This document shows, piece by piece, positions 8,450-52,406 of a DNA stretch of 64,000 nt. The position numbers and the translations under genes are program-made. The stretch is from positions 6,944,001 through 7,008,000 of the forward strand of contig CM114271.1 of the NCBI GenBank assembly GCA_050084515.1. Reading direction: 5' to 3'. Source of the stretch: Blasia pusilla. Taxonomy: Eukaryota. The first letter of the stretch is position 1. Every line of letters starts with the position of its first letter. The notes beneath the pieces are model-generated. The model was not told the DNA's origin. It worked only from the letters and a program-made list of their open reading frames with translations, and searched no databases.

Positions 8450-9420
8450 GGCCATACCAAGACTCAAAATCCAAGTCAAACAATTCAGGTCTATGGCCTG
8501 ACCCAACACATGACGTCATGAAGCCTCAGAAATAGAAGCAACCGCTGTCACGCCAGTAGTAAATCCCATCGCACGCTCTCTCTCATCAACGTTAGGCTCC
8601 ACCAATTGTCGCACATGAGAATCCCATACAAGCCCGGACCACCTTCCCTGTAGGCATGTGACGCGGGAAAACTCACAAATGTGGGTAGTGCCATCCTAGG
8701 CTGGCCCACACGGTTCACCACTGCCATGGGTGACCGATCAATAACCCTCACCACTTGAGAAAGTCGCCAAAGATCCAAGATACTATCCACCGTAAGGCGA
8801 GGATCCTCTTTGACTTTGCATCATATGCTCGACGTAGAACCTCCTAGGCAACAAGTTTGTCCACCACAAGCGTGGGACGATGTGCACTATAAGCCAACTC
8901 ATTTGCATCCAACAACACACGCTGGTCCAATCCAAGACCGCACCTCATGAACACTCGCCATCATCCGGTCCGAGTGTCACCTAACAATGGAACATTCTCA
9001 GAATGTAAGCTAGAGCACGTGCTCGATGAACTCAAGATGTCGTAACACCCGTAACATCTCCCAAAACAATCGAGACCTAGGGTCATGTAATCCCTCACCA
9101 CGACCAAAGACGTGTATGACTCGACATGGCCATCCAAAGCAATCACCAAATCCATAGGACCAACCCTCTCAAGGTCCTGCGCCCCAACAATGCAATGTGT
9201 GATGGTAAAGCACGCTGGTACCCACGAATAGCCGATGGCGGCAACAACTCGGGATATCTCGCATCAATCGACCAATATGTCGAGATGAGACTCTCGGGCC
9301 GTCTCATCTCGCTCCACATACACGTATCTCCCCGACAGAATACCGCCTGCAACATTGCCGCCAAACCAAGTGCTAATCCCACCAAAGAGATCTAACACAC
9401 AAATGCCCCCCGGATCTTGC
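8450..9420 (-). pseudogene. DNMT3-like cytosine-5 DNA methyltransferase domain in E1 pol (frameshifted)
   Basis: Motif I VLDLFGGIS (~9371-9400), II YVYVERD, IV DLVIA/GWPC (9124-9155), VI ENVP (8988-8999), VIII AHRP (~8875), IX ERERAMGF (~8560-8585), X LGQAIDL (~8485-8506), in canonical order. Confidence 0.88.
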
Positions 9421-12400: not shown

Positions 12401-12718
12401 GCAATAGGAACCTCTCACCCGATCTGGATGAACTTCAACAGAGCTTCCGCACTCCAAGCTCTCCACATCAGAAAACTGTCGAACACGAACCAGAATCTTC
12501 AATGCTTGATAACTTCCAACTCCCTTGACGAAATCCGCGATCTGGTAGCGTTGGAAAGCTCTCAGCAAGGCGCTTCTTTTCCAACCAACCATGCACCTGA
12601 TTCACACCTCCAACATAGGCAACAAGCCGTGAACATCCACGGCTGAGTACACAATCAGCCCTAACCAGATCCTACTGATCTAATCGAAGCTACCATCGAT
12701 CTACTCCAGTTCTTTGAG

Positions 12719-13085
12719 TGAAATCCGTGAAAGACCTACTGTCATAAAACACGTTTACAATCACATAAAATCGAGCCAAACCCACTCCACGATGGGAGAA
12801 TCTAGGTTGAAGCTTGCGGGAAACACCATAGCCAAGAGCTCTACTCACTACCAAGGCTAACTCCCAATAATAACAGGCTCAACTCAAAGAATGATCGTTC
12901 TTTGAGGGCAAGCCACCTTATATCCTCCAACCTAAGAGCGGGCCCTACTGGGAAAGTCACCCCTAAGTGAGTAACCCCAACCCTATGTATGGAACCGCAT
13001 CTCTACCAAGCCACTACGGTCCTACATAAGGAATGGCCTCTACCAGCACACCATACTCTACGACATAATCCGTATGGTCATGACA
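12719..13085 (-). repeat. E1 repeat B, 5' copy; forms the element's 5' terminus and contains a TATA box
   Basis: Repeat of 4476-4843; sense ATATAAG at 12923-12917; TSD follows at 13086. Confidence 0.93.
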
Positions 13086-13249
13086 CACACAACACCGATC
13101 TTCCCCACACACGCGTCGATCCACACATGTAAAAAAATTAACTCATACATATACATGGAGATCACACAACCGCCCCCCTAGCTGGCAATTGGATCCCCCC
13201 AACTCCAGATAGAAAATATCACATCTCTCTAACATGACCTACTACCCTA

Positions 13250-16116: not shown

Positions 16117-18320
16117 GTAGGCGCACCCCTATGCGCGCGTCCCACCTCGGGGGGGGGGCGTGCGCCGTTCGCGCCCTAACCCTACCCCTAGCCACCCTTT
16201 ACTTGATAGCCCCCCGGCGGCTGTAAGCCCTAACTCTCCTTCTTGCAAAATCCCGACATTCTCGCTATTAGACGACGCTATACCTAGCGTCACAACCTGC
16301 GCTACACCCTGCTGTTGTCCCCCATTAATCCGCACCAGCAAAATTTGAGAAAAACGGATAACGCTTCCGCCCACGGCCTTCCAAACAGAAAAATGACAAA
16401 CACCCGCAATACACGCGTATCCAGGGGCCCCCGACCAAGGCAACTCGATTGCTTACCTGAAAACAACGAATTCCCACCAGCCCCCTGCCATCTTTCTCAC
16501 GTAAAAATAAAGAGTAGTAAAAATGGCACATCCAGAATCAAGGAATCCGGACGCTAGCACCCTAGTCCTATCTCACACACATACAAGGGAGGTGTTGCAA
16601 CGGCCCAACATGAAAAAAATGGCTTAAGAAAGACATCTTCCTCTCTTATATAGGGTTGGGAAGAGCCAAAAGGCTCTTCCCCTAAAAATAGCCCTCCCCT
16701 TGGTAACGTGCGCGCACAGGTATATTTATGATATAATACAAAATATTCATTATTTACTTACCATACATTCATTGCATTTAGGGCTCTGTAAGGAGGACAA
16801 GGGATAGGATCCTCAAAGGTATATCACAAACAACATCCATCTTCTTGCACTACTACATTTGCGACTGATTTACAAGTTACATGAGCCAAAACTCGGTGAT
16901 AGTACAATTGCAATAAAATCACACCGGGCTTACAACTTTACGAGTCTCACACTCGTAATTGACTCGCAAACTTGAGAAGTGGACTTACAAATTATGGTCG
17001 TAATGTAGCTTAAAGGTTCCATTTTCTTATACTTGCAAATCCTACACAGTTTAATCCCAAAATGCTGGTACGATGCTTGTAAGAGAAAGTAACTTTTTCA
17101 CGTCTTTGCAAGCCACTTTTTGGTGATTAAGAGTCTGACTAGTTACAAATAAGTCTTAAATAGCAATTCCAAAAAATAGTTTTTTTTTGCATTTGCAAAA
17201 TAGTGGTTTTGGACAACGGTTTGATTAGTCACAAAATACCTAGTCCAACTTTTTTTCACTCACAAACTGGTTTTTTTGGTCTCACAAGGGCCTCTCAAAG
17301 TTGTGGTTTTCTACAACTGCAAAGTAGTTGTTTTCTACTCCTCTTAAATTTGGTTTTAACTCATTCTTGGGTCGAGAAAATCTGTTTCATCGAGGATTTA
17401 TCTCCTTCCAACTTTTTCTTATGCATGATTTTGCTTTCTTCTCTTTCATTTCTTTGTTATTAAAACCAATTTTTTTGGGAAAAAAACATGTACAATTATG
17501 AGCTTCATTCCACACATATAAGACGCTAATTCATTTGAATACATAAATATAAATCATATGCCTATTTCTTGGATATTTTTTTCTCTAAAATTCATATTTG
17601 TGATTAGAAACTAAGTGATGAGCTATCTGGATAAAAATACTTATGTGGGTCTTAAATTTTTTTCGTGAAACCCTAAGAATTCTCTAGGTCTGAAATCATT
17701 ACTTATTTGAAGGACTATAATTAAAATTTGGAATATCTTAACTATTTAGAAGAAAACATGTATATATTTGGTGGTTTTTGTAAAATTTCTACCACATCTA
17801 TGATTATAAATTTAATTTTAATATTTTTCTTACAATGCTTAATAAATCTAATATACAAGAAAATAGTAAAATAAATTCATCTTGCAACAAATTGATATCG
17901 AATTCAATGGTACTAATCTTGATGAATATTTCTACCTCTTTTTCTCCTCAAATTCATGATAGTTAAAATACATCAAAGCCTTCTTATGTGGACTAGAAGT
18001 AGATGGATTTGTTTTTTTTACGAAACGAAACTCAAAATCCAAAATTTCTTTCGATCATGGAAAAAAGTCCATAACTAAGAACGTTACCAAAGGAACTACA
18101 TCTTTCACTTAGTTGTTAATGTGAGTTCAATTGCAATATTCATAAGAAAACTTCTTTCTTACTAAAGCTCATACCAAATATTTTATGATACTTTCCAACC
18201 AAATTAATCTGAATTTTGAAGCCAATTCATTTAAATCATGTTTCATAATATTTATCAGATTTTATATATATATACATACACATATTAGGATTCCTTTATA
18301 GGTGATGAGGATATGATTAT

Positions 18321-21300
18321 TGTGGTGCGCATACACATCGTTACACAACCCACATCGTTGGTCACATCTACACACCACACAACACCGATCTTCCCCAACA
18401 TACGGATATATCCACACATAAATTAAACATACTCACGCATATACGGTGGGACCCCACAACCGCCCCCCTAGTTGGCAGTTGGGCCCCCCTTACTCCAGAT
18501 AGCACACACGTATGTCCTCGACATGATCTCCTACCTATACACATCTAGCACTATTGGTGTCGTCATCCCCGTAACACTGCCACACTGCAGCAACCCGCTG
18601 TAGTGATCCCTTCGAAGAGATCTAACACTCTCGTACCCTGCTCCAAACATAGACACCATTCCACGCCTGCCTCACGAGCTCATCTGCACTCCACGCATCT
18701 CAACGCTCGTCTCCAACAACAATAAAGAAGTTTGCACCATGGGAAGAGACACCCACCTTGGCATGTCTCTCCGTGGGATTATTCGCTATAAGAATGTCCT
18801 CCGCATGTGTGCTCCTCTCCCCGAACCCTCCTCATCAACTAACACCACCTGTAAATGCTGCCAATGTGATCACCGTATCCTCATGTGGTTGACCACCACT
18901 ACTCCTTCCAAACAATACTGGTAGATGGCTCACTCATCCGTCATCTGATCGCCATCCTAGCCGATAAAAAACCGTCTCCTCCCAAAAATCCAGACTGAAA
19001 CCAAGGGGATACAACACCGAACTCCCTACCAATACATCATACGACTCTACCAATGTCGTAATCGCCCGACTGCGCACCATCGCACTATCCGACTCATGCT
19101 ATGGCTATAGTCTAACCACCAACTCCTATCGAGTCATGTAATGGATGGATGATACGCCCCCAATAGAGATATGTATCTGAAAGGGACACGCTCAATGTCG
19201 CCTTTCCATAATTCCAACGCCAAACACGTCGCCTTCCCTAACATCAAGGGTTGCGCTCCCGAATCAAGTAGGACTCGTTGCGGGTAGTACATCGTACCTG
19301 TGGGACAAACCAAGAGAAAAACTCCTGCTCGATTATCCAACAACACCACACCTGGTGTGATCATGGCTCGCTCTATCGCAGACATAGTTGGCATATCTAT
19401 CAACTTTGTCACCGCCACATGCCATGAGTCACTAGGAGACGTCTCGAGCACATGCTTTGAGGGGCTAGTCCACAACCTCCTCAACTACTTCTAAACGAGA
19501 GGCAGTCACCTCTCCACGCTCACACAATGTGGCGGCCAGTCGGAACACCTCCGTTGGTCCAACTCCCAACGTCGCCAACTCTATGGCAGAAAATAATGGA
19601 GTTTGGCTTATCCTAGTGGTCACCTCCAACAATATGGTCGACATTGGCTCCTCCCGAGCCAACATAGGAGTTGTCTCTCCAACTCCTCGTGACGTCAATG
19701 CACCTACCTCATCTGTGGGTACTAATGATCGTCAAGGCATGATTGACGATATATGTAGTGCCTGCGACAATGTGAACGACTGGGAAATCCTAGCCTGCCG
19801 CCCATTGGTCCCCTCTTGTGGGTCAATCTCCACCCACCTCTCAGTGGCTCGATCACTCTTGCAGCACCTCGAGTCACCACCGCAGTAGCCTCAACCTAAG
19901 CTGCATTGCACATAAACCTCTACCTCGTATAGTCCTCCCCCGTATTATGATACGACGTGGAGGTTGGAGCCACACTTGCTACTCTTGGCTCCAGACCTGC
20001 CTATAGCTGCATGATCATCATGGCGGAAATCCTCTACTCCAACTGATCAATGCGCGAAAGGAGCGCTGCATCGGGTGCCCGTCCTCCATCTCCTATGACT
20101 GGTGATGGCACTCTACCACCACAATCATCCACTTCTCAATCTCCATCAACTCCTTGCCCCCAAGTCATCTACCTACCTCTGGGCGTACCTCCAGGCGAAG
20201 ATCATAACCCCTATCCCTAGTGTGACCATATCGTTGAGAATGATCACACTGCAACTATGGTGGGGCCATCCTCTGTGGCTCCTGAGCATTTGGAGGCACT
20301 CGTGGCCCTTTTCCATGTTGTGGGCAATCCCTCTACCTATGTGACCCACCACACGTCCAACAAGCCAACCCTGGTCCCTGCTCGGAAACATATGTCGATA
20401 TGGGCCGTTGCCTCATTGGGTCATGATACCCGCCATGCTCTGTGGGCCCACCAGCTCGCTCCTATGGTATTGGTGCATGTTGGGGCACATATGGGTCTAC
20501 TCCTACTCATCGATCCGTCGTATCCTACGAAAATCCCGTGGTCACCACCTACTCCTCACTCATGTTGAGCTCTACTCGCTCAAACAACTCTAACATCACC
20601 GTCAATGTGGGATTCGCCTTGTGAAGCAACATTGCATCCCAAACTCTCCTCCATAGCTCCCCGTCCAGCACCCCGAACCAATACCATACTGACTGCACCT
20701 CAACCATCCCATATGTGGCAACGATCAACTGTCACATGCGTGTGAACGCCTCCCTCAGGCTCTCACCCGATGTGCACTGAAAATCCTGTAGACTCTTCAG
20801 CTTGTCGGTCCGCACACCCTAGTAGCTCCTTTCTAAGTGTCAGAAGAAATCCACTATAGGACTTAAACTTGGTGGTCCTTTACCATAAGAGGTCTCTGCC
20901 ACCTCATCACTCTCACTGCCATCATCTCCATCTAGTCCCCGGGCTAATGGTGTAGATCTCTCTACCCTCACTATCCCATTATACGCCTCGCGACCACTAG
21001 TGAACATATACCCTAGAGCCCAATACACCCTCTAGGCATCAATCTCTATAAAGTATAGAGATCGAAACTCCGTGTAGTCATCCATCGGCGGATCCTCCAA
21101 GTGCTTGAACAACCCCTTCCATGCCATAAGAGGGTTGAACCGCGTAGGGGTCCGTATCTCTTGGAAGTCGCACCATGTGTCGAACTCCTGGATGAAACCG
21201 TCAAGATCTATGGTGCCCACTGCACCTGAGAAACGAGGCATGCCCCAATGGCCCATGTCATCCATCTCTCTCCACGTATCATCGTCCGCGTCCGAGATCT

Positions 21301-27768: not shown

Positions 27769-28813
27769 TGTCGTGCGCCTACTCTTCTTTGAACGTTAAT
27801 CTTTGTTGTTGAGCGGAAGCGTGCGTTCAGTAGGTCACGCTCTCGACGCTGATCTATATCCAAACATGCACTCTAGTTAGTTGGGTCTGGATCAATCAAC
27901 AAGCTAACTTTCAGAGTTCTTGTCTTGGTCTTACATCAAGCTCAACTTTCCTAGTCTTACGGTTTACAACACATGCAAGTCTCGAAAGATTTGGGACAGA
28001 CTTTCTGGTCGGTTTAGGAACCTCAAACGGCGTTTCGCGCCTAGTAGTTCCAATTCTCTGATAGACATCTACTGAGTTCCTAATTGAGACTCACACAAAA
28101 TCAATCACGAGTCATAATCTAAGTGTGGCATACAAAATCCACTCCTTTTGATCAGGTTTGGGTTTCGAGTTCTAACGCCAAACTCTCCTTCCATCCCGTG
28201 CCCTTGAGATGCCGTTTGGTGCTCAAAGTGGGGATTCGTGTTCCAAGACATCTTGGAGAGACTTCTCCCTTACAAATACTTCTGGACATCTCGAGGGTCC
28301 CCCTAACTTTAGGGAAGTTAGGGGGACCCCGCAGCTGAAGCCCTCAAAGTGGCCCTCAACCCGATTGCTCTCCCAATTGGTTTTGGCTAATATCTCAGCC
28401 TCTACTTACGCATTTGCTAAGATCTTTGATGCGTTAGAAGCGCCACAAGATAAGCTTTCCAACGCGCCCTTATTTGTTCCAAAATAATTTTGGAGGTAAA
28501 CGTTATGGTCCGAAATACAATCAACTTCCCCAAACACTAGTCGCGTTCCAAAACCGGTTCTCACCTCTTTGGCAACCAACCTTCCAGGACTCAACTCATC
28601 TCAAGTCTTGGCTCGTGTTTGGTCTAGGTTTCTTGGTCGCGACCACTTACGCAAGAAACGCACAACTCTGTTCCGCATTTCATATCTTGGACTTTCCGAA
28701 GAGACCTTCCAAAAGCCTCTCCAAAGCGCGATCATCGCAGCGTGAGTCCACTTGAGTTCTGATGTTATGCTTGGTGCCTATTTGGTGTTCGTTTGGTTGT
28801 GAGGTTTGCAACA
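27769..28813 (-). mobile_element. Solo LTR (~1.05 kb), related to the LTR at 30385-31386
   Basis: TG...CA ends; 5-bp TSD CACTC at 27764-27768 and 28814-28818; shares GCGGAAGCGTGCGTTCAGTA and other blocks with 33068-34027. Confidence 0.88.
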
Positions 28814-29466
28814 CACTCCTACATGTAATGTGGCCACCTCCGCGGCACAACACTCTCCTTGACCAGCATGTCAAACCTCTTGTCAGCAAATATAGACGAA
28901 CCATTGGCATACTAACACTGTCATCAACTCTCCACCATAAGTACTCATCTTGCCTGAAATCAAGTACGCCCAAGAAAATATTTTCTCAACACTATTTGGC
29001 TCTACCAAGTTAGCTCCAACTACGTTGACCTTGACTTGGTATCCATGCCTACCACGTAAACCTTGGCCTACCTGGTCTCCACGTGACCTCAACCGTGGAC
29101 CCATTACTCAACCCCGCCCATCTGACTAGGACTTCTTCCTTCCCTATGTCGCGGAGCCATAATAGCTCTTTTCTTTGTCTCCCACTTGTTTCCGACCTCC
29201 CAAGCTCCCCCGTTTGGGCACGCGGCCCTATGGAAACACAATTTAGGTCATTTTTTAGGGAAAGACAATTGGATCATAGCTCTCTCTAACCCCTCATGGG
29301 TGGAATCAAGTGTCCATCCTAAAAACACCATAATCGTCCATGACGATGAAGGGCATAGTGCCCTTAAGAGTATCCGATGTAATCAACACAACAAAGAAAT
29401 CACTTTGAAGGTGTGGATCTCCAACTCTAATACCTCCTTCAACACTCCAAAATATGGGAGGTCCTC

Positions 29467-30093
29467 TATCACATCTTACTTCAACGTAGGTAGAGTTCTA
29501 TCACGTTGACGGGATAGAGAGTCAGCTGGTTGTTTGGGTATAACTTTGTCCCAAGATGTCGGATGAGGTTGGCCACATGTCTGTTGTGTCGGAAACATCG
29601 TTTTTGGCGGTTTCCCTATTTTGGTTTTAGTCCGTCAGGTGAGCTGTTGACCGAGTCAACGATCATCTGATAACATGTGCACACAGGTTATAATTGGTAG
29701 GGCTCTTTTTGGGGGAAGATCCTTTTGGCTCTTCTTAAGGGTATAAGAGTGAGGAAGAGGCTTTCCCAAGCCATCTTTCTCATGTTGAGTCTTAGGAGCG
29801 CCTCTCTTGCATAGACGGTGTGGGTGTGTAGGAGTTAGGGTGCTAGCGTGCGGATTCCCTCATAGTAGAGGGTGGATGTGGTTCAAAATGCCAATGTAGA
29901 TTCATGAGTGGAGTTTTAGGTTGTGTGAGCTATTTTTACTACTCTTGATTTTGGTTGTGGGGTCCCACGGTATATGTGTGAGTATGTTCCATTTATGTGT
30001 GGATCCATCCGTATGTTGGGGAAGATTGGTGTTGTGTGGTGTGTAAATGTGACCAGCAATGTGAGTTGTGTAGTGATGTGTATGTGTACGAAA
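29467..30093 (+). mobile_element. Solo B+A terminal unit of the split-terminus gypsy lineage
   Basis: Reverse-complement homology to B (29467-~29953) then A (~29954-30093); 4-bp TSD CCTC at 29463-29466 and 30094-30097. Confidence 0.8.
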
Positions 30094-31388
30094 CCTCTTT
30101 GAATATATTTTTGTCATGTCTAAATGATCGTGACTCTTGCTCAAAAGTGCTACGTACTTCGTTATCCCACATTTTTGTACGTCGCTTGTCCAAAGCCTTG
30201 CTCCAAATTGTTGACCATCCCCTCGTAATTGCGTATTCTTCTCCATAATGTCAAGCTCCAATTCATGGCATTTTTCCATATTCTCCCCAATATGGTGTGA
30301 TTGAAGAAGATAAGTTGTGTAGGTTCTGAATTAGGGAAATTGCGCTCATGTTAATGCAATGGAGCATGCACGTCGCGCCCCTATTGTCGCGACCCTCATG
30401 ACCAAACAAGTGCCAAGCGGAACATCGGAACATTAGCGGGCTCACGCTAAGATGGTTTGCGCGTTGGAGTTGTCTCAAAGAGGAGACAAGAGACGAGACG
30501 CTAGCGAGAAGTCGCGTTTCAGATGTGATGGTCGCGACTCAGAAACCAAGACCAAATGCGGAATGAGACTTGAAAGAAGTCGAGTCTAGGAAGTGGGTTG
30601 CCAAAGGAAAGATCCGGATTTGGAACGCCACTTACGTTTGAGAGTTTCCGACTTTATTTATGGTCATAACTTTTAGTGCCAAGATGAGTTTGGAGCAAAT
30701 AAGGGTGCGTTGGAAATCTTATGGAGAGCCGGTCGAAACGCACCAAAGATCGCTGCAAACGCATAAGCAGAGACCGAGATACAACCCGAAAACGACTGTA
30801 AGTGGAGTCGGGTTGAGGGCCACAATGAAGGGCCTGAACCTCTTTTCCCAAAGGGGAGGGGTCATTGGAGAACCCCATAAGTACTAGTAAGGGGGAAGGT
30901 CTCCGAGAGTGCTTGGAACCCAAACCCCACTTTGGGCGCCACGGGGCGGCTCAAGGGCATGGAACGGAACGCGAGTTTGGGCGTTGGGTTGGAAAACCTG
31001 CACCAAGTCCATTGAGGCGATTTTAGACATCCCTCTTGGATTTCATGCCGCGACTCAATTACTTGGGTCTCGGTTTGGAACTCACACGAGGACCGTTGAA
31101 TAGTTGGGATTGCTAGGCGTGCAAGTGCCGTTTCAGATCCCTGGACTAACCAGGAAGTCTGTTCCAAGTCTTGAAGGACTTGCCCTGTGTTGGGAGCTAG
31201 GAACTAAGGAAGGTTGAGCTTGATGAGACGCCGAGTTGAGGACTCGGTGGGTTGGAACGCCGGTTGGCCAAACCCGACTAACGAGAGTGCGTGTTTGGGT
31301 GCAGATCGGCGATGAGTTCGTGACGTACTGAACGCACGCTTCCGCAACACTAAAGATTGACGTTCAAGGAGAATAGGGGCGCGACAAG

Positions 31389-31400: not shown

Positions 31401-31529
31401 TAATCCTTGGTGAGCGAGAACTTGGGGTCGTGGGATCATCCGGACGCTTGGGAAATTTCAAGGTAGCGGCTAGACTCGGACGCTCGAGGAGGGACGCAAG
31501 AAACGAGGAGGAGATCTGAGTGAGTTGGC

Positions 31530-32860
31530 TTGGAGATGGCGATCGAGGGAGAACAACCCAAGAAGCGCCGAATCAAGCGACGTGAACCGAGAGAGGAACC
31601 AATGCCGGACCGTGAAGCTATAGAGGAGACGGAGAATCTCGAAGAGTTGAATGCCAGTCGTGAGGACGTCCCAGTGGCGACTCCTTCCACGGGGCTAGTG
31701 GGCCCAAACTCAGGGGAAAGGACGGAGTCGAGCCAGACGTTGGACTTGTTGAAGGTGTTGGTGGAGCAGATGTCCCAGCAAAGCAAGCGGATTGTAGAGT
31801 TAGAGGCCACTCGAAACCCGAGTGCGGGCAAAAAGCTCTGCAAGACCACGCCATTTACTGGAGTGGGGCGCTCGCGGAAAGTGAAGGATTTCCTTACGGA
31901 ACTGGAACTGTACTTCGAGGCGCATAAGGCTGCTGAGCAGGACAAGGTGACGGTAGCCGTTACTTTCCTGAAGGATCATGCTCTACAATGGTGGACCGCT
32001 CAACGAGAGGAATATCTGGGCGGCGAGTCACCTCTAAGTTGGGAGGAGTTCAAGGAGTTGATTGGGGATCGGTTCACTCCGGAGTACCAAGGGTTGCGTG
32101 ACACGGTGGAGTGCGTGCGGATGCGGCAGAGTGGTTCCTTAAGCGCGTATGTGAGGGAGTTTAGTGCGAAATTGACTTCTAGTCCGAAGATGGATGAGCA
32201 CGCGAAGAAGGCTATCTTCATTAGTGGACTCAAGCCGAGCGCTGAGAAGGCCCTTTACCGAATGCCGACGTTGCCAGAGACCTGCGCGGACCTTTTGAAG
32301 CTAGCGGAGCGGATTGGGGACGATGAGGTCCAAACCCAGAAACCCTTCGAGTCAAAAGTTTTTTCGAAGAAGTCAAAAAATAAGGAGGCGTTCAAAAGAG
32401 GCTGGAGTGGGGGCCAACACGAACCATGAGAGTCGTCTGCCCCGGCAGTAAAACGAGTGGAACTTCATGCGAAGCCGAAAGGAGGACAACACTCAAAGAC
32501 AGGAAACGGCAAGGTCGTATGCTACAACTGTGGCGATCCGGGGCACCTGTCGAAAGGGTGTTCAAAACCGAAGGTTAGTAGTGGGAGTATGATTGCGTTT
32601 GCTGCTAAGCATCTGTTGGCGGGCGATATCGAGACGTCCCTTCAAGTCACCAAAAGGACGCACAATTTGGTGTACCTAAGATCCAAGATTGCTGATCGCG
32701 ATGTGTTGTTGCTCGTGGATACAGGTGCTTCGCACTCCTTCCTAAGCCCGAGAATCGTGAAGGAACTGGGGCTATCTACCTCTAAGGCGGACGAGCCCAT
32801 TCGAGTGGGATTTGCAGGAGGCAAGTCTCATCGGACTTCTGATTTGGTCTTGACAAATGA
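31530..32860 (+). pseudogene. Gag (capsid-like domain, CCHC knuckle) and aspartic protease, with an in-frame stop at 32427-32429
   Basis: FLKDHALQWW..SWEEFKELI..RQSGSLSAYVREF; CYNCGDPGHLSKGC; LLVDTGASHSF; ORFs 31530 and 32457 are in the same frame. Confidence 0.9.
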
Positions 32861-34032
32861 GCATTTGTCAAGACATCCTCAAACTCCTTGACCACTTCCT
32901 GGAGTGGTTCTGGGACTCCCCTTGAAGCAGCGTCCTGATCTCTGCGTATACTGCTTGTAGCCTCCTCCACTTGTCTCATCAAGTAGAGAAATCCATCCTC
33001 CAACTCAGTCATGCTCCTCCTTGTGATCGAGTTCACCAACTCCATCAAGGAGAGTAGGGGCGCGACACCTACTCTCCTTGAACGTCAATCTTTAGTGTTG
33101 CGGAAGCGTGCGTTCAGTACGTCACGAACTCATCGCCGATCTGCACCCAAACACGCACTCTCGTTAGTCAGGTTTGGCCAACCGGCGTTCCAACCCACCG
33201 AGTCCTCAACTCGGCGTCTCATCAAGCTCAACCTTCCTTAGTTCCTAGCTCCCAACACATGGCAAGTCCTTCAAGACTTGGAACAGACTTCCTGGTTAGT
33301 CCAGGGATCTGAAACGGCGCTTGCGCGCCTAGCGATCCCAACTGTTCAACGGTCCTCGGGTGAGTTCCGAACCGAGACCCAAGTAATTGAGTCGCGGTGT
33401 GAAATCCAAGAGGGATGTCTAAAATCGCCTCAATGGACTTGGTGCAGGTTTTCCAACCCAACGCCCAAACTCGCGTTCCAAAGTGGGGTTTGGGTTCCAA
33501 GCACTCTCGGAGACCTTCCCCCTTACTAGTACTTCTGGGGTTCTCCAATAACCCCTCCCCTTTGGGAAAAGAGGGTCGGGTCCTTCATTGTGGCCCTCAA
33601 CCCGACTCCACTTACAGTCGTTTTCGGGTCGTATCTCGGTCTCTGCTATGCGTTTGCAGCGATCTTTGGTGCGTTTCGACCGGCTCTCAATAAGATTTCC
33701 AACTCACCCTTATTTGCTCCAAACGCATCTCGGTGCTAAAAGTTATGGCCATAAATAAAGTCGGAAACTCTCAAACGCTAGTGGCGTTCCAAATCCGGAT
33801 CTTCCCTTTGGCAACCCACTTCCTAGACTCGACTTCTTTCAAGTCTCATTCCGCGTTTGGTCCAGGTTTCTCAGTCGTGACCATAACACCTGAAACGCGA
33901 CTCCTCGTTCGCGTCTCGTCTCTTGTCTCCTCTTTGAGACAACTCCAACGCGCAAACCATCTTAGCGTGAGCCCGCTAATGTTCCGATGTTCCGCTTGGC
34001 ACTTGTTTGGTCATGAGGGTCGCGACAATGCA

Positions 34033-36300
34033 TCCCTCATATGGCCATACCAACTTAAGCATTGTATTATGCATAAGATTGTCATAAGAAAAAAAATTCT
34101 TGGTATCTCTGCTAATGGTGTAGAAATATTAAGACAAGCCACTAATTAGGATATGTAGAACATGATCGGTTCTAGTATGTAGCCTTTTGTCATATTGCCC
34201 TCCACTTGGGCTTGGTTTTTGATAAAATCCTTGAATTGGTGCATGTAACGCTACACAAAATCAATCCATGTATAATGCTTATGTATCAAAACACTAACCT
34301 CTTTGGCCATATGGTTCAGCCAATGACACTTCCCACCTTGAATGAAGGTAGAAAGAGCCTCTCCAAATGTGTGTAACGACCACATTGTAATTGCCTCCTT
34401 TCACAATTTATATATATAATATCCTTTCACGATTGTTTATAAGAATATGTGTCTCTCTAGCAAAAAAAATGGTCCATCAAGGAGGGAATCACACTAGCAT
34501 CGAGGATCTAATGTGCATAAGATCCTCGAGGTGTTGGATGGACATAACCTAACTGGTTTTCAAGCAAACCACAAGCTTATTTTGGAAGAGAAGTCAAGTC
34601 ATAAACAATAACATGCATAATTGGATGCCTCTAGATCCCTACGTATCAAGGTAATAACATGTACTTACACTCCAATAAGGTAATCTATTGAGACATGACA
34701 CCCACTTTATCCCATAACCTCTATGGGGTAATTCACCCCTTTGCACTTGATGCTCTTGGACGAACCAATCTATGTATGTCATAATAGATATGATGCCAAT
34801 ATCGTCGACCTTGTGTCCTCCTAGATCCACCCTCATGGCATATCCTTGAGGAAAATACTTGGCCACAATTGGATATATGGTAGTCTTCAACTCTCCATAG
34901 TAGATAACCTCCAACCTAGGATGGAAAGGCAAACATGCTAACTTTCTTGAAACCTGCAAGCCTAATATATATATCCGTATCCTTTACAATCAGAACTACT
35001 TGTTAAATCATGATATGTTAAGTCCCACTTAAGAAACTTGCATAATGCGTTATGAGATGGGATTCGGTCCATTGTGCATCATCCATAGTAGTATGGCATG
35101 AAATCTAAGACCCTTGTCTCTTGAGGGTAGTCAATGCTCCTATCCACATCAACCATGAGCTCACTCCTATAGGAAGAATGACTCTTCCACAAGCAACTTG
35201 AGGTGTGTCGAGCCATATTTGGCCCTACAGCATGTATAACATATGCATCATAACTAAGCATGATGTTTGGTGGTTACTTAAGAGAATATATCACATGACG
35301 ATGAAAGTGAGGTCTCATTTACAAAATAAGAGGAGTGAAAATCCCAAACTTACAATAATGAACCCCAAAATCATAAAACTCCTCTTCGAAGCAAGCTAAG
35401 GTGATATGTTATAGTCCACCACCATAATTAATTATGGTGGTGAACTATATGGCCAATATTGGCCATATTGAATAGGATCTTCACTTAAGAATGGCCAATA
35501 TTGGCCAAAATTGATTAGGTTTTGCACTTAAGAATGTGTGGTAACATCCTATCAATCGCAAGGCCCAATCAACGTAACAAGGCTCTTCTTGATAATCTAG
35601 ATATGTGCTTTTCACATGTGAGGGCACAAGCCGAAGGGCCCAACCCCAAAGTATGACACCATATGAGCACTAGTAAAGTCCATACCATACCACACCATCA
35701 ACTATGCCAATAACGATACACTTAACATATGCAAAAATCATGGAATGATGAGAAATGAACAAAGAGCCTTCGAAGGTACATCTCCTTGTGTGTCATCTTG
35801 ATAGCATATAGCTCTCCAAAATGTAATATGGGAGGGACCTCCAAGATTTCCCATGCCCTTGTTATAGGATAATAGGAACAAGTCATAAAGGCATGCATCT
35901 ATAAGCTCATATTCTAGTCCCACATGGCTTACTAGTTGTTATGAAGCTGATCTAGAGTTGGGGAAAATGTTCCCCTCAAGTAGGAATCTATCATGCCATG
36001 GGCGATATAACACATCCATTAACACATTCAAAATAGATAATTACTCCTGTAATTTCAAAAGAAGAAAGATAGTAGCCAATTAAAATGATCACCAATTATT
36101 GTGATGTAAAATGGAGCTCGCTCCTCCTCATTCTATGGCCTCCATATTGTTGTCGAAAAACTCAATGATTTCCTCCATGTTCCGCTTATCATCATTCTCC
36201 TCGTTGCCACCCGTTTCACCATCCTTGTCAATGTATATTCCGTAATCCTTATATCCTCCCATATTTTTTTCTTGGTAGAGATCTTAGCTTATGCCCATTA
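34033..36300 (-). mobile_element. Highly decayed CACTA/En-Spm transposase remnant
   Basis: MGLEYELIDAC (35738-35923) resembles the Tnp2 LGL.YE.IHAC motif; GIKWVSCLNRLPYW (34639-34959) and RYMHQFKDFIKNQAQVEG (~34195-34255) resemble En/Spm blocks. No termini seen. Confidence 0.55.
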
Positions 36301-36349
36301 AAATCCTTTCATTATTTATTGCGTCCCTCCCCTAGCTTTAAGACCTCTA

Positions 36350-36908
36350 TTGCAACCTTATGTTCTTCCAAGTGTCAAGTTGTTGGATGCCACCTTGAGC
36401 TCATCTCAAGCATCCAATCTTCATATGTTATATTGGGTTTATGCTTGCCAAGTATTAGCTAAGATATAGTCATTGCAACATATGATATCACTTTGATCAT
36501 TTTTGGCTCGTTTCAAGACTTATACTTGTACGTTTTTTCTAGATCTTTGTTGTGTTGGAAGGGGCTCCTTAGTAGCTTTCTAACATCACGTAACCCAAAA
36601 AAATCCTCCATGTAGCCTCCATGATCTCAAGCCTAAAGAACCATCAAAGACGCACTTAGACTTTAAGTTAGGTTGGAGCCTCCTTGTAGTCCAAATCTTG
36701 TGGAGCTTGAGTTCTCAAGTTCCATCTTACACTTGGTCTTGCACTTTTGGGTCACAAACATAACCATTTGAGACACTCATTTACACCAATATCTCACGTC
36801 TATGACTCATACCTTGCTTGTGATACTCTAATGTGTTTCCATCCTAGTGTGAGCCCACTAGAGGTATGGTCTTCTATGTTGGTGTGTATTTGGTTACAAG
36901 GGTCACAT
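36350..36908 (-). mobile_element. Degenerate LTR fragment of the 30385/27769 type
   Basis: End (CCTAGTGTGAGCCCACTAGA...TTTGGTTACAAGGGTCACA) resembles 33960-34027. The left boundary is uncertain. Confidence 0.45.
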
Positions 36909-37280
36909 CCAAAATAAAAGAAATTCGATAATACTTGATGAGCATTCATTTGAACTCTTGCTTGCTAACTCTTCTATTTACTTTCCATAAGACTACAACA
37001 TAAGGAGATATAACATGACATGTTGAAGAATAGCCACAAATTCTACATAAGAGAAGAGAAATGATTCCAGTAAGCTCAAGAGACCCACAAGTCTTTGTAG
37101 AAACTACAATGTGGAATAAAGCAAATAAATACATTACCTCTCAAACTATTGTGATCTCTAATTTCACAAGGGACATTGTGTGATTGTGTTTGGATACAAC
37201 TAAAGTAGAGAGGCACCTTGGAACTTTCCTCAATCAATCATGCATGTGAAATATATAGTCACATTCACATTCCTTGGTTA

Positions 37281-40200
37281 TGTCGTGCGCATACACATCG
37301 CTACACAACGTACATCGCTGGTCACATCTACACCACACTACACCGATCTTCCCCACACACGGGTCGATCCACACATGTACAAAATCAACTCATACATATA
37401 TATGGAGATCACACAACAAAAATAAAGAGTAGTAAAAATGGCACACCTGACCTAAAACTCCACTCCTCAATCTACATCGGCATATCGAGCCTCGTCCACC
37501 CTGTGCTATCAAGAAATCCGGGCGCTAGCACCCTAGTCCTATCTCACACACATACAAGAGAGGTGCTCCAACGGCCCAACATGAGAAAGATGGCTTGGGA
37601 AAGCCATCTTCCCCTAAAAATAGCCATCCCCCTGGTAACAGGTTATCAGGGGCGGGTGACCTTGTCAACAAGTCACCGAGTTGTGAAAGACCTCAACATG
37701 AAAGTTGTCAGAAACAACGTTCGTGACACAATGGACCTATCCTCAACCTCATCCGACACCGTGGGAAAAAGTTACACTCAAGATAGTCCGCTGGCTCCTA
37801 CGCCCTATCCACGATAGATCTCGGCCTATCGGCTACTCAAATGTGACAACTGTCGTGCGCATACATATCGCTACACAACATATATCGCTGATCACATCTA
37901 CAACACACAACACCGATCTTCCCCACACACGGGTCGGTCCACTCATATACAAAAATCAACTCATACATATACATGAAGATCATACAACCGCCCCCCTAGC
38001 TGGCAGTTGGATCCCCCCTACTCTAGATAGAAAATATCACATCTCTCTAACATGACCTACTATCCTATACACATCTCAGACACATCCATCATCTCCTGGG
38101 AACTACATCAAGAGGGGGGTCGGACATGACATATGTCACCCTTGAGAACAACCATCACATACCAACATGGTGGCTGCACCCCTCATGGATCCGCGCAACA
38201 TACACCTCAAGCCTGCAGGTACCATTGCCACGCTCGGATCCATTGTCCCTTCTAAGTTCGGAAGATGACATGGCGCAAAATTGCGCACATGATCCTTCCA
38301 AACCATACCATCCCGTCCCTCCAACATGAGGACTCCGGTCGGTAATACCTTGCGCACACCTAGGATCGTGCGTCCTACAGTGACATCTAGTGTCGTGGGT
38401 GCCGCATGCTGTAAATACACGTAATCTCCAAGATGAAACCTCCTAATCCCTAGACGATAACCTCCTCCACGAAGATTCGCGTACCTCAATGTATCTCTAT
38501 GGTGAGCAATAGCTAAATTCTCAAAGGCCTTAGGCATAACTCTAAGGAAAACCTCCGTCCTCTGAGAACATGCTTGTACCCACACATCTGGATCATCAAG
38601 ATCTAACACCTCCGCCATGTCACGTCGAATAGTTGCAAGTTAATCTGGCTCTCTCCCAAAGAGCAAAAAGTATGGTGAAAATGACGCCAAGGATGCCTAT
38701 CGACTAAAGCAATAACCCATAGCAACTGTAGGTCCCACTCCCTCAACTGTCCTCGTTGCAAACCATACTTGTGCAATCCTCTCTTCACCGTCTGTCCTAC
38801 TCTCTCCGCCAACCCATCCGCCTGAGGATGATCTCTGGACGTGGTGCGGTGATCTATCAATGCCTGATCACACAAGGCCTAAAACTCTCCATTGAACTCG
38901 GTACCCTGGTCAGTCAACACCTCTGCCGGTGCACCAAAGTGACTAAGCACACGATCTAGAAACGTATAATTTTTCCTGGCTCGCCTTGTCCGGTAGTGCT
39001 ACCAACTCTATCCACTTGGAGAAATGCTCCACCATGACCAACACGTACATGTGATGACGCCCCATCAATGGAAAAGCTCCTGCAAAGTCTAAACTCCACC
39101 GATAACCTAAATCCATAATCGGCAAAGGATGTAACTTTGGATTGGGAGCATTGAAGGATGCTCGCACTTTGTCACATACCATACATCTCGCCACAAATTG
39201 TTGTACCCCTGTATGCATGCCGCGCCATAAATGCTGAATATGTAGTAAGCTGTAAGTACGCTTCACTCCAAAATGTCCCAACTCCTCATGGGCATGTCGC
39301 ACTACACGTGTTCGTTGGGAAGGATGAGTTACCACTCGTATCCTACCATCTCTCCATACCCACAAAATGTGAGTCCCCTCCCACCTAAACCTCCTGGCTC
39401 GTTGTAGGATCCGCTCCCGCTCCCTACCACTCACTGTGCTCGCTATGACGCCAGTGCGCAAGAACTCCACAACCTCCACGTCGTCAAGGATATCACGACC
39501 ACCTGTCTCCTCCTCACTGACCTCCGGATCCAAAGACTCATCATCCAACCCCACCACTGGAGTCATCACCTGTGGTTGACCTACCATAGTCAACCAACAA
39601 AGATAGGCAAATGCATGCCAACCGGGCACCATCTCCTCATCACTCTCTCCGTGCCATCGAGCTTCTATATCGTCTCTCTGACTCGAACATGGGTTACGAC
39701 TCAACCCATCCGCATCCTGGTTTAGTCGGCCTAGCCTATGAACCACCTCAAACTCATACTCCTATAGTAATAGAGCCCACTTGGCAAGCTTTCCCGTAAG
39801 CTTGTCGGACTCCATCAATCACCTCAACGGCTGATGATCTGGTGTACCGATCCGACCTTGTCTGTTGGTTGATAGGACGGTAATCTCTACACATTCGCCT
39901 ATCTGTCCAATTTCCATACATATCCTTCTTCGTCGGCATGACTGCGGCAGATGCATACTCCCCATGTGATAACTCCACAAGTCCTGCCTCCAACAAGTCC
40001 TGACTCCTACTATGAATCAAGGCTCGCTCCATATCACAATACCCGTAGGGTCGACAAAAGATTGGCGTATCACTAGCCAACTCAATGTGTATCCCTGGAC
40101 CCTTCACCGTACCCAAGTCTCTCATATTGAAGGCAAAACAACTAACATGCCTTCTCATAAACCTATGAACTCGCCGTCGCTCTCCTCCTGTCAACTTGGG

Positions 40201-42640
40201 ACCTATAACAGGCTCCCAAGTCTCCATCGTGACCTCACTGGGAGAGGACGCAACCTCCGGCTTTGGTTGCTATATAGCAACCCTAGCCACCTCCGCAACA
40301 TCCACTCCACTCTGACCTCCTACACCATGCTCCACATCCAAAAAATGAACATGTGATACTCTTGCTGCTTTCGCACTCTCTGCTCGAACGACGTCCCAGG
40401 AAGTCCATGGGTGCCTACCTCTCCTCATCCCGCCCCCAACCAATGCCTATACAGATCTTGTAGGAAATGGTCCAACTCGTGGATGTGACGGCATGGATGA
40501 CACTTGCATCCATCTCTATTCAGCCATACCTAAGCTGACTATCCATGTGAGACAGTTGAGGTCCATCGCCTGCCCCAACACCTATCTCCGGGATGCCTCA
40601 ACCATCCCTGACACCGCCGTAGTACCCGTAGCGAACCCCATGGCACCCTCACGCTCATCGGTTGTAGGCTCCTCTAATGCTCGGGTCATCTCATCCCAAA
40701 TCATGCGTGGCCCTCCCTGACGAAAGGCATGGGATGCTCGGAAGCTCACCAACGTTGGTTGTGGTGCCCTCAACTTCCCCACCCTATTGGCCATCACCAA
40801 CGGTGGTCTATCATCCTGCGTCATCACCTGAGATTGACGCCATGAGCCTAGAATAGCATCCACTATGAGATGTGGTGCTCTCTGGACTCCATCGTATGCT
40901 CGACTCAGTACCTCGGATCGATGGTATCAGGTTCATCCACCACAGTCGTGGACGATGGGCATGTGATCCAACTCTCGCTGCATCTAGCAACACAACATGT
41001 CCCAACCAAGACCTCACCTGATGCACACTCGTTATCACATGTGCACGAGTGTCTCCCAACAACGGCACGATCTCCAAAATGTATCCTAGAGAACATGTCT
41101 GACTCTCCTGCAAGTGTCGTACTACTCACAACATCTCCCAAAACATCCATGACCTCGGATCCTGCAATCCAAATCCTCGGCCAGCTGATGAACGACCCTA
41201 ACATGGCCATCCAGCAATCACCAAATGAATGGTGCCAACTCTATCCAGATCCTGCGCCCCCACCAAAGAGATGTCGGAGGGTAGTGTATGATGATATCCC
41301 CGTACTGCAGATACCGGCAACAACTCAAAATACCGCTGGACCAATCTCGCCACGTGACGTAATGAAAGTTGCCGCGCGGTCTCATCTCTCTCCACATAAA
41401 GGTACTGATGCACCTGTATGCCCGCCTGCAATAGTGTAGCCAATCCGTTGCTAATCCCTCCGAAGAGATCTAATACCCTAACACCCTCCTCTGGACACTG
41501 CCACACAACGAGTGTGGTATCCAATGGGGTCAACGTCTCCACTTTAGGAGCCCGATTGCCACCTGACTCTCGCTGGTCTGGGATAAAGGCATGACTCCAC
41601 GCCTGCCTCACGAGGTCGTCGACACTCATTTGTAGCTCTCAAGTTGTACCCCACAATGGTGAAGAGGTCTCGCCAACATGTGAAGAGACACCCGCCATGG
41701 CCTATCTCTTTGTGGGACTATCCGCTACTGGGACATACTCCGCCTGTGCGTTCCCCTCCAACAACTCTCCTGGCTAGCTCACACTACCTGTGAAAGCTGC
41801 CAACGTGATCACAGACTCGCCTCGTGATTGACCACCTCGTCCCGTAAATTGCACAGGTAACTGACTCATCCACCCATCACGTGACCGCCACCCTGGCCAA
41901 TAAGCAACGGTCTCCTCCCATAAGTCAAGGATGAATCCTATGGGATATAAAACTGTACTCCCCACCAACACATCGTACGACTTAATTGGTGTCGTAATCG
42001 CACGTGTGTGCACCATAGCACTATCCATCGCATGCTCTAGGTTGACTCTGATAACTATCTCCTGTCGAGTCATATACTGCGTGGGTGACACGCCTCCAAT
42101 TGAGGTCTATATCTGTAAGGGAGAAGGCTCAATGTCGGCCTTTCGTAACCCAAACGCTAAACACGCCGCCTTCCCTAACATCAAGGGTTGCGCTCCCGAA
42201 TCAAGTAGGACGTGCTACGGGTGGTATACTATCCCCGTGGGACTAACCAGGCGAAATACTCCAACTCGGTTATCTAGTAACACTACTCCAAGTGTCACCA
42301 CTGCTCGCTCTATGGCCGGTCGAGCTGGCATATCTACCAACTTTGCCGCCGCCGCATGCCATGACTCTGTGGGGAACGTTCCGAGCACCAGCTCTAAGGG
42401 CAGGTCCACCACCTCCTCAACTATCTCTAAACAAGAAGCAGTCACCTCTCCACGCTCACACAACATGGCGTCCAGCCGCAACACCTCAACTGGTCCAACT
42501 CCCAACGTAGCCAACTCTATGGCGGAAAATAGTGGAGTCTGACTCTCTCCGGTGGCCACCTCCAACACTATGGTCGACATTGACTCCACTCGAGTCGGCG
42601 TAGGAGTTGTCACTCCAACTCCTCGTGTAGTGCCTCCCAC
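37281..42640 (-). mobile_element. Ty3/gypsy E3 (subfamily 2), 5'-truncated: A-B-A, PPT, PHD, integrase, partial RT, DNMT, protease
   Basis: A 37281-37417, B 37418-37848, A 37851-37988, PPT complement 37989-37998; integrase ORF 38943-39746 (HAHEELGH..CMVC..WSLDFAG); RT core and RNase H deleted at ~39835; protease VLLDSGAQPLMLG ~42175-42215. Confidence 0.92.
40530..41500 (-). pseudogene. DNMT3-like cytosine-5 DNA methyltransferase domain in E3 pol
   Basis: VRVLDLFGGISNGLATLLQAGIQVHQYLYVERD (I, II); IHLVIAGWPC*G (IV); YILEIVP (VI, Asn to Ile); LDAARVGSHAHRPRLWWMNL (VIII); EREGAMGFATGTT (IX); VLGQAMDL (X). Confidence 0.92.
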
Positions 42641-50193: not shown

Positions 50194-52406
50194 ATGAGGG
50201 TGGACGTGTTGTCCAGGAACGGCAGGGAAATCGTCAAGGGCGGCGTTGAAATCCATAACGATGTATGTTTCTCTGTGCGATTTTTTTCATTCTGTTTGAG
50301 CATGCTGTGTCTCGTCTGTCGTTTGGTTCAGTGTCTCCATCGGTGTGCGCAATGTGGCCATAGGAGGTGCAGAAACCAGTAGCTCCTGCCTGCTAGCTGT
50401 AGTGCTTGCCTGGATGGACCCTTTCGCGTAAATGGGGGAAGCATTGGTGGAAGTGAGGCTTCTTCGAGCGCCGCTGATCAGGGAAGAGGGAGCGATGCAC
50501 TTCGGAAGTTGTATCTTAGTCCTTCAGCAGGTCTTGAATTTTGCAATTGGTCCCCTGTGCGTCGTTGATGAGGGTACGAGAAGTATGCGGATAGAGATTT
50601 TTCGACGATTCTGGTCGAGCATTTCGTAGTCTTAAGTGCTCGATCCCATGATCCACCTTCCCTGCTGCACCCCACTCTGCTCTACCCTATACCCTAAAGC
50701 TTACCCGTTTCCTCAGTGAACTGCATTCCGTATGATGCCCTAGTGTTGCGATGAGCCGAGACATTTGTGCTCTTCAACCTCCAGGATCTATTTCGGGAGT
50801 TGCTATTCGAGAGCGTCACTCCGGGTTTAGCTTCCGTTGTCACCCTCCCTAATCTCATAGCACACAGTTGTGCGTTTTACTGTTGCGCGTGGGTTAGTAG
50901 CCCTAGAGGGAGTGAATGAGGTCTTTGATGGAGGATTGGTAATGATTCAACTTGGACTGGTGCATTTGGTCACCGTGAGTGCAATACACATATACATCCG
51001 GTAGTTCACAACTTACCCGTCGTTTTTATCCAGGCCACCGTGGAAGATCTCAAGGCGGCTATTCACAAGCAAGGTGGGTGGTCCTGTTTCTCGATTTCTT
51101 TTTCCACAAGTTTTTCGCGCAGGATTGGTATTGGAATTCGGAATTGCGCTTACACATGTCATTTCTTCCTCCCCAGGATGAAGCTTTCTTTTCCAAGGGT
51201 AGGCTTGGGCTGTAGCGCACCATGTTTGGAGTACGTTCATGTCGGTCATCTTCACCTGTCAGATTATCTAACAACGGTGACTCTGGTGTTTCGATTCAGC
51301 CCGGAAGTATTATCCAAGCAGACAACGTCTCACCCTGCCATTAGAGAATGACCAGGTGCGCCCCACGGTGCTGGAATCTGGCAAGAAACTGAAAGACTAC
51401 TTTGGGGAGGACCGAGGAAAGGTGCTCTTCAAGGACCTGGGTCCTCAGGTTGGCTATAAGACACTATTTTTCTTCGAGTATCTGGGTCCTCTTCTCATCT
51501 ACCCCATCTTTTATTTCTTCCCGGCTATATATACACTTTTCGGTCTGCCACTTCGGAAATCTGTGCATGTAGCTCAGACCTATGCACTTTATGCGTGGAC
51601 ATTCCACTATGCAAAGCGTATCTTGGAAACCTTTTTTGTTCACAGATTCAGTCATGCGACCTCCCCAATCAATAATGTGTACCGAAATTGTGCCTACTAC
51701 TGGAGCTTTGGCACCTTCATCGCATATTTTGTAAACCATCCTTTCTACACCCCAGTTGGTGAAATGCAAATGATGTTTGGATTCGGTTTATCAATAGTGG
51801 CTCAGCTATCAAACTTTTACACCCATATTATCTTGAAGAACCTCCGGGCCCCTGATGGAAAAGGTGGATACCAAATTCCGAGAGGTTTCCTCTTCAACTA
51901 TGTCACCTGTGCGAACTACACAACAGAGATCTATCAGTGGATTGGCTTCAACATTGCAACACAGACTTTAGCAGGGTACCTATTTCTGGCTGCTGCTGGT
52001 TATATTATGACCCAATGGGCTCTTGGCAAGCACAAACGGCTAAGAAAGGTAACCTTCTCAGCATTTCTCCTTTAATCCTTGCACTCTTATAAATGGAGTT
52101 CAGAACTTTCATAGCAAGGCCCATTGGCTTAGGATATTTTGTGGCCATCTAGCTGCATAGTTTTGAAGTTGAAAATTTCTTGGGGGTTATTCCATCCATT
52201 CAGTGTTTTGATAGGGGGAGATCAGAGATTTTGGTGTGTAGCCCCGATCTCCTTGAAAATTATTCAGAAAGGTTCAGTGAGTTGTGTCATTTGTTGCTCA
52301 TTTACTTCTTGCATTTACTGGTATGGAATGGTTGCAGATCTTCGACGGAAATCAGGGCCGAGTCAAATATCCAAGGCGATGGGTCATCTTTCCACCCTTT
52401 CTGTGA
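50194..52406 (+). CDS. ECR: Very-long-chain enoyl-CoA reductase (trans-2,3-enoyl-CoA reductase), 4 exons, 308 aa
   Basis: Exons 50194-50262, 51034-51073, 51300-52048, 52338-52406 with GT-AG introns join in frame (927 nt). Product [12 protein letters not shown]...YPSRQRLTL...[22 protein letters not shown]...HRFSHAT...VTCANYTTE...[13 protein letters not shown] matches plant ECR/CER10. Confidence 0.96.

Follow-up and report, generated by a model that had tools for sequence, protein, structure and literature searches.

A 64,000-nucleotide stretch of the genome of Blasia pusilla (assembly GCA_050084515.1, contig CM114271.1, positions 6,944,001 to 7,008,000 of the forward strand; the whole stretch is called the window below) contains a nest of degraded retroelements in which two repeat segments, here called a and b, stand in the order b–internal–a–b–a. 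They are long terminal repeat (LTR) retrotransposons of the Ty3/gypsy type, possess a DDE integrase and are related to KnitGypsy-Dnmt3. According to the original prediction, reverse transcription and integrase define two sets of ends that are permuted relative to each other, and this is well supported: a putative self-primer and a polypurine tract (PPT) would define a cDNA of the form ab–internal–ab, and the genomic form is the circular permutation of such a cDNA. As to how this form arises, the reading that we favour, and to which we give about an even chance, is that the two sets of ends are out of register and that the circularly permuted cDNA is integrated via a cut at an inner junction, J.

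Repeat layout and the inner junction

Self-comparison of the window yielded five copies, E1 to E5. The elements are described in sense, on the minus strand, so that a and b are the reverse complements of the plus-strand segments A and B; b0 denotes the 5' b, and a1, b1 and a2 the repeats of the 3' block. The layout is b–primer-binding site (PBS)–internal region–PPT–a–b–a, with TG…CA ends and 4-bp target-site duplications (TSDs). An A-B-A block with its PPT occurs three times, in two sequence families (3718-4369/13086-13170, 4370-4953 and 37281-37988). Within 37281-37998 the plus-strand order is A 37281-37417, B 37418-37848, the dinucleotide 'ac', A 37851-37988 and a C-run at 37989-37996. In sense this becomes PPT-a1-J-b1-a2, with a ending in ..CGCACGACA, b starting with TGTCAC and J reading ..ACA-GT-TGT... 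The two A copies of this block, which belongs to E3, are 90.6% identical. E2, E3 and E4 are truncated or deleted, and E4, the lone-a copy of the window, is a rearranged derivative. The copies and their parts are as follows.

37281-37417, minus strand: terminal a (a2) of E3, the 3' end of the element, with the sense end given above; 90.6% identity is to 37851-37988, and the DNA left of 37281 is unrelated
37418-37848, minus strand: b1 of E3, sense start TGTCAC, with an anti-PBS segment at 37579-37594 beside a PBS-like hairpin arm
37849-37850, minus strand: 2-nt J spacer of E3, in sense ..ACA-GT-TGT..
37851-37988, minus strand: inner a (a1) of E3, beginning directly 3' of the PPT
37989-37998, minus strand: PPT of E3, in sense ..AGGGGGGCG; the same run precedes a1 in E1, E2, E4 and the metagenome loci
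38079-41638, minus strand: degenerate pol of E3, with DNMT3-like, reverse transcriptase, RNase H, H2C2 plus rve integrase and PHD regions; the 5' b is missing
4370-13085, minus strand: E1, a complete copy of the second family, TSD CACA at 4366-4369 and 13086-13089; its parts in plus-strand coordinates are a2 4370-4475, b1 4476-4843, spacer AAT 4844-4846, a1 4847-4952, PPT 4953-4963, an internal region with degenerate pol, PBS 12701-12718 and b0 12719-13085
3718-4369, minus strand: 3' part of E2, comprising a2 3718-3854, b1 3855-4310, spacer 4311-4312 and the first part of a1, 4313-4369
13086-16721, minus strand: remainder of E2, comprising a1 to 13170, PPT 13171-13180, a shortened pol, PBS 16487-16502 and a truncated 5' b, 16503-16721
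18321-18468, minus strand: E4, a lone a (18321-18460) with PPT and an AT-rich flank directly outside; an internally deleted derivative
29467-30093, plus strand: E5, a solo b-a unit with decayed ends TATCAC...ACGAAA, TSD CCTC at 29463-29466 and 30094-30097

E1 is inserted within the inner a of E2, which it splits, and the family thus nests into its own relatives.

Further copies were sought in metagenomes. Fifteen relatives were aligned for a search that returned 599 pattern matches, 546 of them confirmed, from which the best 80 loci were taken. These were annotated by self-BLAST and with a library drawn from the a and b segments of 24 copies; 55 of the 80 could be annotated, and the remaining 25 were short or too diverged.

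J is the point at which both genomic ends, the TG of b and the CA of a, meet as ..ACA-NN-TGT... Indeed, the sequences originally quoted for it were verified (GTGACA-ac-TGTCGT at 37843-37856 and 4305-4318, ATAACA-aat-TGTCGT at 4838-4852), as were the A|B borders at 37417/37418, 3854/3855 and 4475/4476 and the claim that two integration ends lie head to head at the inner junction. In all 25 of the a-b-a loci read, and also in E2 and E3, the spacer at J (..ACA-NN-T(G/A)T.. in the loci) is 2 nt long; that of E1 has 3 nt. With the commonest spacer, GC, J is a perfect palindrome, GACAGCTGTC. Cuts 3' of both CA dinucleotides would leave recessed CA-OH ends with 2-nt overhangs, as integrases normally produce. 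In 10 of the 25 loci (L039, L052, L065 and L076 among them) the TG of b1 at J has decayed to TA.

Priming sites predict an ab–internal–ab cDNA

A G-run (..AGGGGGGCG or similar) stands directly before a1 in every copy read, and a begins directly 3' of this PPT, bearing out the claim that the bases following the PPT are the start of a. The elements have a PBS after the 5' repeat and a PPT before the 3' repeat, as Ty3/gypsy elements do. The b end abuts the PBS as predicted, and this PBS appears to be a self-primer site rather than a tRNA site: inspection by eye found no tRNA-type PBS (TGG...) after b0, and the bases that follow b0 directly are complementary to a stretch within b that lies some 110-180 nt short of the b end. 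The helices measure 24 bp in L009, 17 bp in L030, 16 bp in L033 and 15 bp in L021 (each 0 of 300 shuffles), and 12 bp in L036 (1 of 300). In the window, the anti-PBS segment of E3 pairs with the PBS of its sister E2 through 13 exact + G.U pairs (0 of 2000 shuffles). Minimum-free-energy folds from the anti-PBS segment to the PBS closed the stem, with z of -3.5 and -5.4. Since the paired sequences differ between families yet remain complementary, the pairing covaries.

This pairing points to priming of the Tf1 kind, in which the element would supply its own primer; self-priming has been reported for the Tcn1 clade in plants (PMC6317226). Such a pattern would make the b end the U5 end and the start of a the U3 start, and ordinary reverse transcription should then give ab–internal–ab. 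Each b also carries a copy of the PBS sequence immediately before the anti-PBS segment, with which it forms a local hairpin (37566-37594 of the window, plus-strand coordinates); this arm might act as a promoter, in strand transfer or as a terminator.

The outer joint varies

The integrated copy contains the parts of the predicted cDNA, two a and two b, in circularly permuted order, so the outer b1|a2 joint would be the meeting point of the cDNA termini. In contrast to J and the PPT|a1 border, it is of variable length. Seven loci of the L072-like family have five different outer joints: one is exact, two copies lack 2 nt or are joined via an AT microhomology, two lack one base, one has an added T that matches the first PBS base, and one has 6 additional nt. 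In the E1-like family, L011 is without about 22 nt of the b end and contains bases otherwise found just beside the PPT, and L001 has one additional PPT-side base. On sequence grounds, this variation resembles that of end-joined termini.

Forms present among the copies

The b–internal–a–b–a layout recurs in four or more families, with integrase identities as low as 36%. Among distinct 3' ends of the 80 loci, after duplicates had been merged by 3' flank (all eight duplicate pairs were in the same state), 20 are a-b-a, 17 are a lone a, and one is an internal deletion. L066, L030 and L079 are also a-b-a, and stand outside the count of 20 as they are cut by contig ends. One locus without library match (L045, L046 and L048 being the same) has a, J, b and a decayed a2 on reading. 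Instead of one full LTR at each end, E1 and five complete loci have b–internal–a–b–a; their TG..CA ends and 4-bp TSDs agree with the 4-5 bp of Ty3/gypsy elements. The complete metagenome copies are these.

L009: b..a-b-a, TSD AAGG
L033: b..a-b-a, TSD TTTG
L039: b..a-b-a, TSD CATA
L072: b..a-b-a, TSD ATAA
L065: b..a-b-a, TSD AACA/AATA (3 of 4 positions match)
L010: b..a, TSD TACA
L021: b..a, TSD TACA
L020: b..a, TSD TGTG
L018 and L036: b..a, TSDs matching at 3 of 4 positions

At all 13 5' ends examined (12 distinct loci and E1) b0 abuts the flank, with nothing upstream of it, and a sensitive search up to 1 kb upstream gave just chance matches of 13-28 nt. Neither bab–internal–a nor ab–internal–ab occurs at these ends (0 of 13 each); the latter, if common and flanked by TSDs, was the form originally named as speaking against integration through a circular cDNA. 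L007 and L008, in which the first ~80 nt of b are unmatched, and E2, with its truncated b, were left out of this count. Within single copies the identity of a1 to a2 tracks that of b0 to b1 (93.8/92.1, 86.7/87.3, 93.0/90.7, 92.2/89.5, 87.5/80.6 and 96.3/96.7%), and both repeat pairs therefore stem from a single event.

In the E1-like family the end branches of lone-a copies exceed those of a-b-a copies in length (Mann-Whitney p = 0.018), and the split of old to young is 7:2 for lone a against 4:7 for a-b-a (Fisher p = 0.09). In the family tree the lone-a state changes 5 times; 246 of 2000 shuffles gave as few changes, and lone a is thus not significantly clustered. The branch lengths suggest that many lone-a copies are secondary, arising by later a x a deletion. 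Their greater age speaks for b-a having been lost afterwards rather than for a primary product of a 1-LTR circle, as which b–internal–a had been predicted.

Two loci first taken for internal–b–a were rejected on reading, L076 since a1 is present in diverged form and L013 as an internal deletion. L001 (1-2713) and L003 (38-2750) agree at 99.4% as far as the J spacer, beyond which they diverge fully, b-a2 in one facing unrelated DNA in the other; this may reflect a break precisely at J, a further insertion at this point or an assembly chimera.

Coding content and relatives

Thirty stop-to-stop open reading frames (ORFs) of the window were scanned against Pfam, giving matches to RT_RNaseH (3e-26), RVT_1 (1.5e-25), Integrase_H2C2 (8e-13) and PHD (3.7e-6), together with a weak, sub-threshold rve match in the integrase ORF. 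The pol order, reverse transcriptase–RNase H–DDE integrase, is that of Ty3/gypsy. Searched with the integrase ORF, a protein database gave 1530 candidates, of which 43 proteins had E <= 1e-10. The named relatives come from liverworts (Calypogeia, Riccia and Marchantia), Sphagnum and Klebsormidium nitens. The closest of these are liverwort proteins at 60-65% identity; a retrotransposon protein of K. nitens has 41% identity. Of the 43, 29 contain PHD, four contain PF00145 and none contains PF00589. Indeed, no tyrosine recombinase (PF00589, Phage_integrase) was detected in the 30 window ORFs, in four relatives or in the 43 database matches.

DNMT3-like fragments with motifs I and IV lie inside pol, upstream of the reverse transcriptase, at 41201-41638 and 9264-9623 (both minus strand). 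The ORF at 41201-41638 has no Pfam match. Its top PDB match is the DNMT3A catalytic domain (E 0.007), aligned over motifs I-IV with I and IV matched, and all 31 PDB matches listed for it are DNMT3-type or other DNA methyltransferases. Intact relatives have the orders DNMT–reverse transcriptase–RNase H–integrase–PHD (P0033) and reverse transcriptase–RNase H–DNMT–integrase–PHD (P0039), so that PF00145 lies before the reverse transcriptase in one and between RNase H and integrase in the other. The PHD finger is located at the integrase C-terminus (window 5097-5369, minus strand; P0033 1470-1513), where chromoviruses have a chromodomain.

The layout itself is already in print, and the window elements add new members to it. 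The repeats of KnitGypsy-Dnmt3 of K. nitens are described in a figure legend as 'the same as that of a DIRS retrotransposon', DIRS structure being defined in the legend to Fig. 1e as A-coding-B-A-B (PMC5890265; de Mendoza et al. 2018). That element, as presented there, and the window elements have in common a Gypsy-type pol with a Dnmt3-like domain and this repeat order. They differ in host, an alga there, whereas the closest named relatives of the window elements are liverwort proteins, and in the window elements a PHD finger follows the integrase. The portion of PMC5890265 consulted gives no TSD, junction, PBS/PPT or mechanism. 'Streptophytes (Gypsy-DNMT3)' are mentioned in a 2026 preprint. 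Our literature searches found KnitGypsy-Dnmt3 as the sole other DDE-integrase element with this layout and no treatment of its mechanism.

PAT and Ngaro elements share with the window elements the split direct repeats A1-internal-B1-A2-B2 and an inner junction holding both termini (TOC1 is classed as DIRS/PAT). They use a tyrosine recombinase, whereas the window elements have a DDE integrase, TG..CA ends and 4-bp TSDs. Likeness to Tf1/sushi elements (the Tcn1 clade in plants) lies in a PBS that would pair with the element's own 5' region and not with a tRNA. Elements of the Tf1 type carry normal LTRs, and their integrase has a C-terminal chromodomain; the window elements have permuted repeats and, at that place, a PHD finger and no chromodomain.

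Proposed mechanism and alternatives

We suggest the following scheme. Reverse transcription would yield a linear ab–PBS–internal–PPT–ab, whose termini, the b end and the start of a, would become joined, either in a 2-LTR circle made by host end-joining or by repair after integrase had cut and inserted. Integrase would cut both strands at one J and insert the resulting CA-3'OH ends with their 2-nt overhangs, the product being b–internal–a–b–a, a circular permutation of the cDNA. The outcome would be directional, solely the J next to the PBS side being opened. An equivalent without a circle is that integrase cuts the left-LTR J of linear cDNA and inserts the new ends, while the host joins the old termini. 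Directionality may, speculatively, reflect which LTR becomes double-stranded first, and lone-a copies would mostly be later a x a deletions. There is precedent for the cut: the integrases of HIV-1 and prototype foamy virus are reported to cleave palindromic LTR-LTR junctions (PMC1905944, PMC1180852, PMC4372172), which like J consist of ..CA-spacer-TG.. with both attachment (att) ends. In retroviruses this junction arises just in by-product circles, whereas in the window elements it is inherited within every LTR and its use would be obligatory.

Several points weigh against this scheme. All of its steps are deduced from genomic copies, most of which are old, with 78-97% identity within their repeat pairs. 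Since both J sites of a ligated 2-LTR circle would be the same, nothing in it makes the outcome directional, and neither does the variant without a circle; the scheme likewise fails to account for the missing b-a-b..a form (0 against 6, binomial 0.016). Variation of the outer joint, located in indel-prone A/T-rich sequence, could be later mutation. The PBS pairing of E1 is weak (9 nt, 41 of 2000 shuffles), and 5 of 15 5' ends tested (L007, L008, L020, L065 and L072, which look decayed) have no significant helix. Finally, the metagenome contigs are short-read assemblies in which a-b-a or b-a-b loops of young copies could collapse, although the 78-96% identity of the repeat pairs in most copies used makes this unlikely.

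The original prediction was of a symmetric process, in which 2-LTR circles are opened at either J and 1-LTR circles at their single J, giving b–internal–aba, bab–internal–a and b–internal–a. The first and third of these forms exist. The second, expected as often as the first, was met 0 times against 6 complete b–internal–aba copies (binomial 0.016, or 0.008 with L030 included). Symmetric opening could be upheld if bab–internal–a were lost fast by recombination between its 340-nt b repeats, 115 nt apart, leaving b–internal–a. It shares the junction logic of the directional scheme, and b–internal–a is common, with 17 distinct 3' ends against 20 for a-b-a and five complete copies with TSDs; a young star-like subfamily has 7 a-b-a against 3-4 lone a, not significantly off 1:1. 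However, b-a-b is absent from all 13 5' ends, some of which belong to copies no older than those with a-b-a; the greater mean age of lone-a copies (p = 0.018) points to gradual loss; and one form would have to decay totally while its mirror form largely survives. We therefore regard symmetric opening as unlikely, with some real chance of being right. The absence of bab–internal–a means either that opening is directional or that this form is made and quickly lost via the longer b repeats, between which the present sample cannot separate. Directionality would follow more readily from an end-to-end jump of reverse transcriptase without ligation, in which the plus strand at the right end switches to the left end of the cDNA to give (a b)–internal–(a b)(a ...). 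Integrase would then use the left-LTR J and a right J, yielding b–internal–a–b–a or b–internal–a and never b–a–b–internal–a, and such jumps would also yield variable joints. Nonetheless, the copies analysed contain no sign of such a jump, lone a should be primary and independent of age, yet lone-a copies look older, and the single-stranded extension would still need conversion to double strand. This we consider rather improbable.

There are two further explanations. In a route like that of DIRS or Ngaro, a subgenomic RNA would run from inside the 5' b into the terminal a and the inner a|b junction would template both ends, the finished linear DNA already being b–internal–a–b–a and integrating as usual. 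The repeats are arranged exactly as in PAT/Ngaro (A1-int-B1-A2-B2), b–internal–aba is the sole full form seen, and in DIRS-1 the internal complementary region is reported to be required for retrotransposition (PMC7192593). However, the PPT lies exactly before a1 and the putative, covarying self-primer site exactly after b0, and a conventional ab LTR is thereby defined; a templated outer joint should be uniform, whereas the observed one varies; and we could draw no primer or jump scheme that fits these sites. To this route we give little credence. Nesting or rearrangement of ordinary LTR elements, such as a solo LTR beside a truncated copy, might be suspected from the degraded and nested state of the window, in which three of the copies are incomplete. 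It is very improbable, since this order, together with matching TSDs, is found again in separate copies from four or more families at integrase identities as low as 36%, and since PMC5890265 reports the same layout for Klebsormidium.

Abundance and other features of the window

Both families are extremely abundant in the host: on 3600-5400 of the window (1.8 kb), 72,053 contig pieces mapped from sequencing run X1 and 2,280 from X3, in a mapping that covered X1, X3, X8 and X13. Fewer came from a run annotated to a different organism, and part of the region is matched by several metagenome runs from air. The pieces are ~100-400 nt long and none spans a whole a or b, so this mapping does not distinguish the forms. 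The 'joints' listed in it were discarded, being merely the two A copies aligning to each other.

At 1-24000 and 36000-42000 the window exhibits a strong strand asymmetry, with plus-strand GC skew of about -0.2 to -0.3; the sense strand of the elements is G/T-rich and C-poor. Another repeat family of ~1 kb is present at 27778-28786 (plus strand), 30383-31377 (minus) and 33068-34029 (plus). Two of its copies, 93% identical, are inverted around a Ty3-type gag ORF at 31524-32429, either as nested elements or as an inverted-repeat element. The only clear host gene seen in the window is the ORF at 51281-52075 (plus strand), with a 3-oxo-5-alpha-steroid 4-dehydrogenase domain (9.5e-25).

Significance

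Circles with two LTRs are usually called dead ends, and use of joined LTR ends by integrase has been argued since the 1980s. The genomic anatomy described here leaves no obvious escape from an internal cut at the CA-NN-TG palindrome, and the elements are a natural system for testing integrase action on joined LTR ends. Since standard LTR finders expect two equal LTRs, such elements will be mis-annotated by them. In the broader view, which we would put slightly below an even chance, an ancient clade with a DDE integrase, extending from charophytes to bryophytes, normally integrates circularly permuted cDNA, its att sites being a heritable palindrome inside the LTR whose use would require joined termini and cleavage of both strands inside the element. 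A PPT before one half-repeat and a primer site after the other may likewise account for the split direct repeats of Ngaro, PAT and TOC1, and the anatomy offers a concrete, testable reading of such repeats in tyrosine-recombinase retrotransposons.

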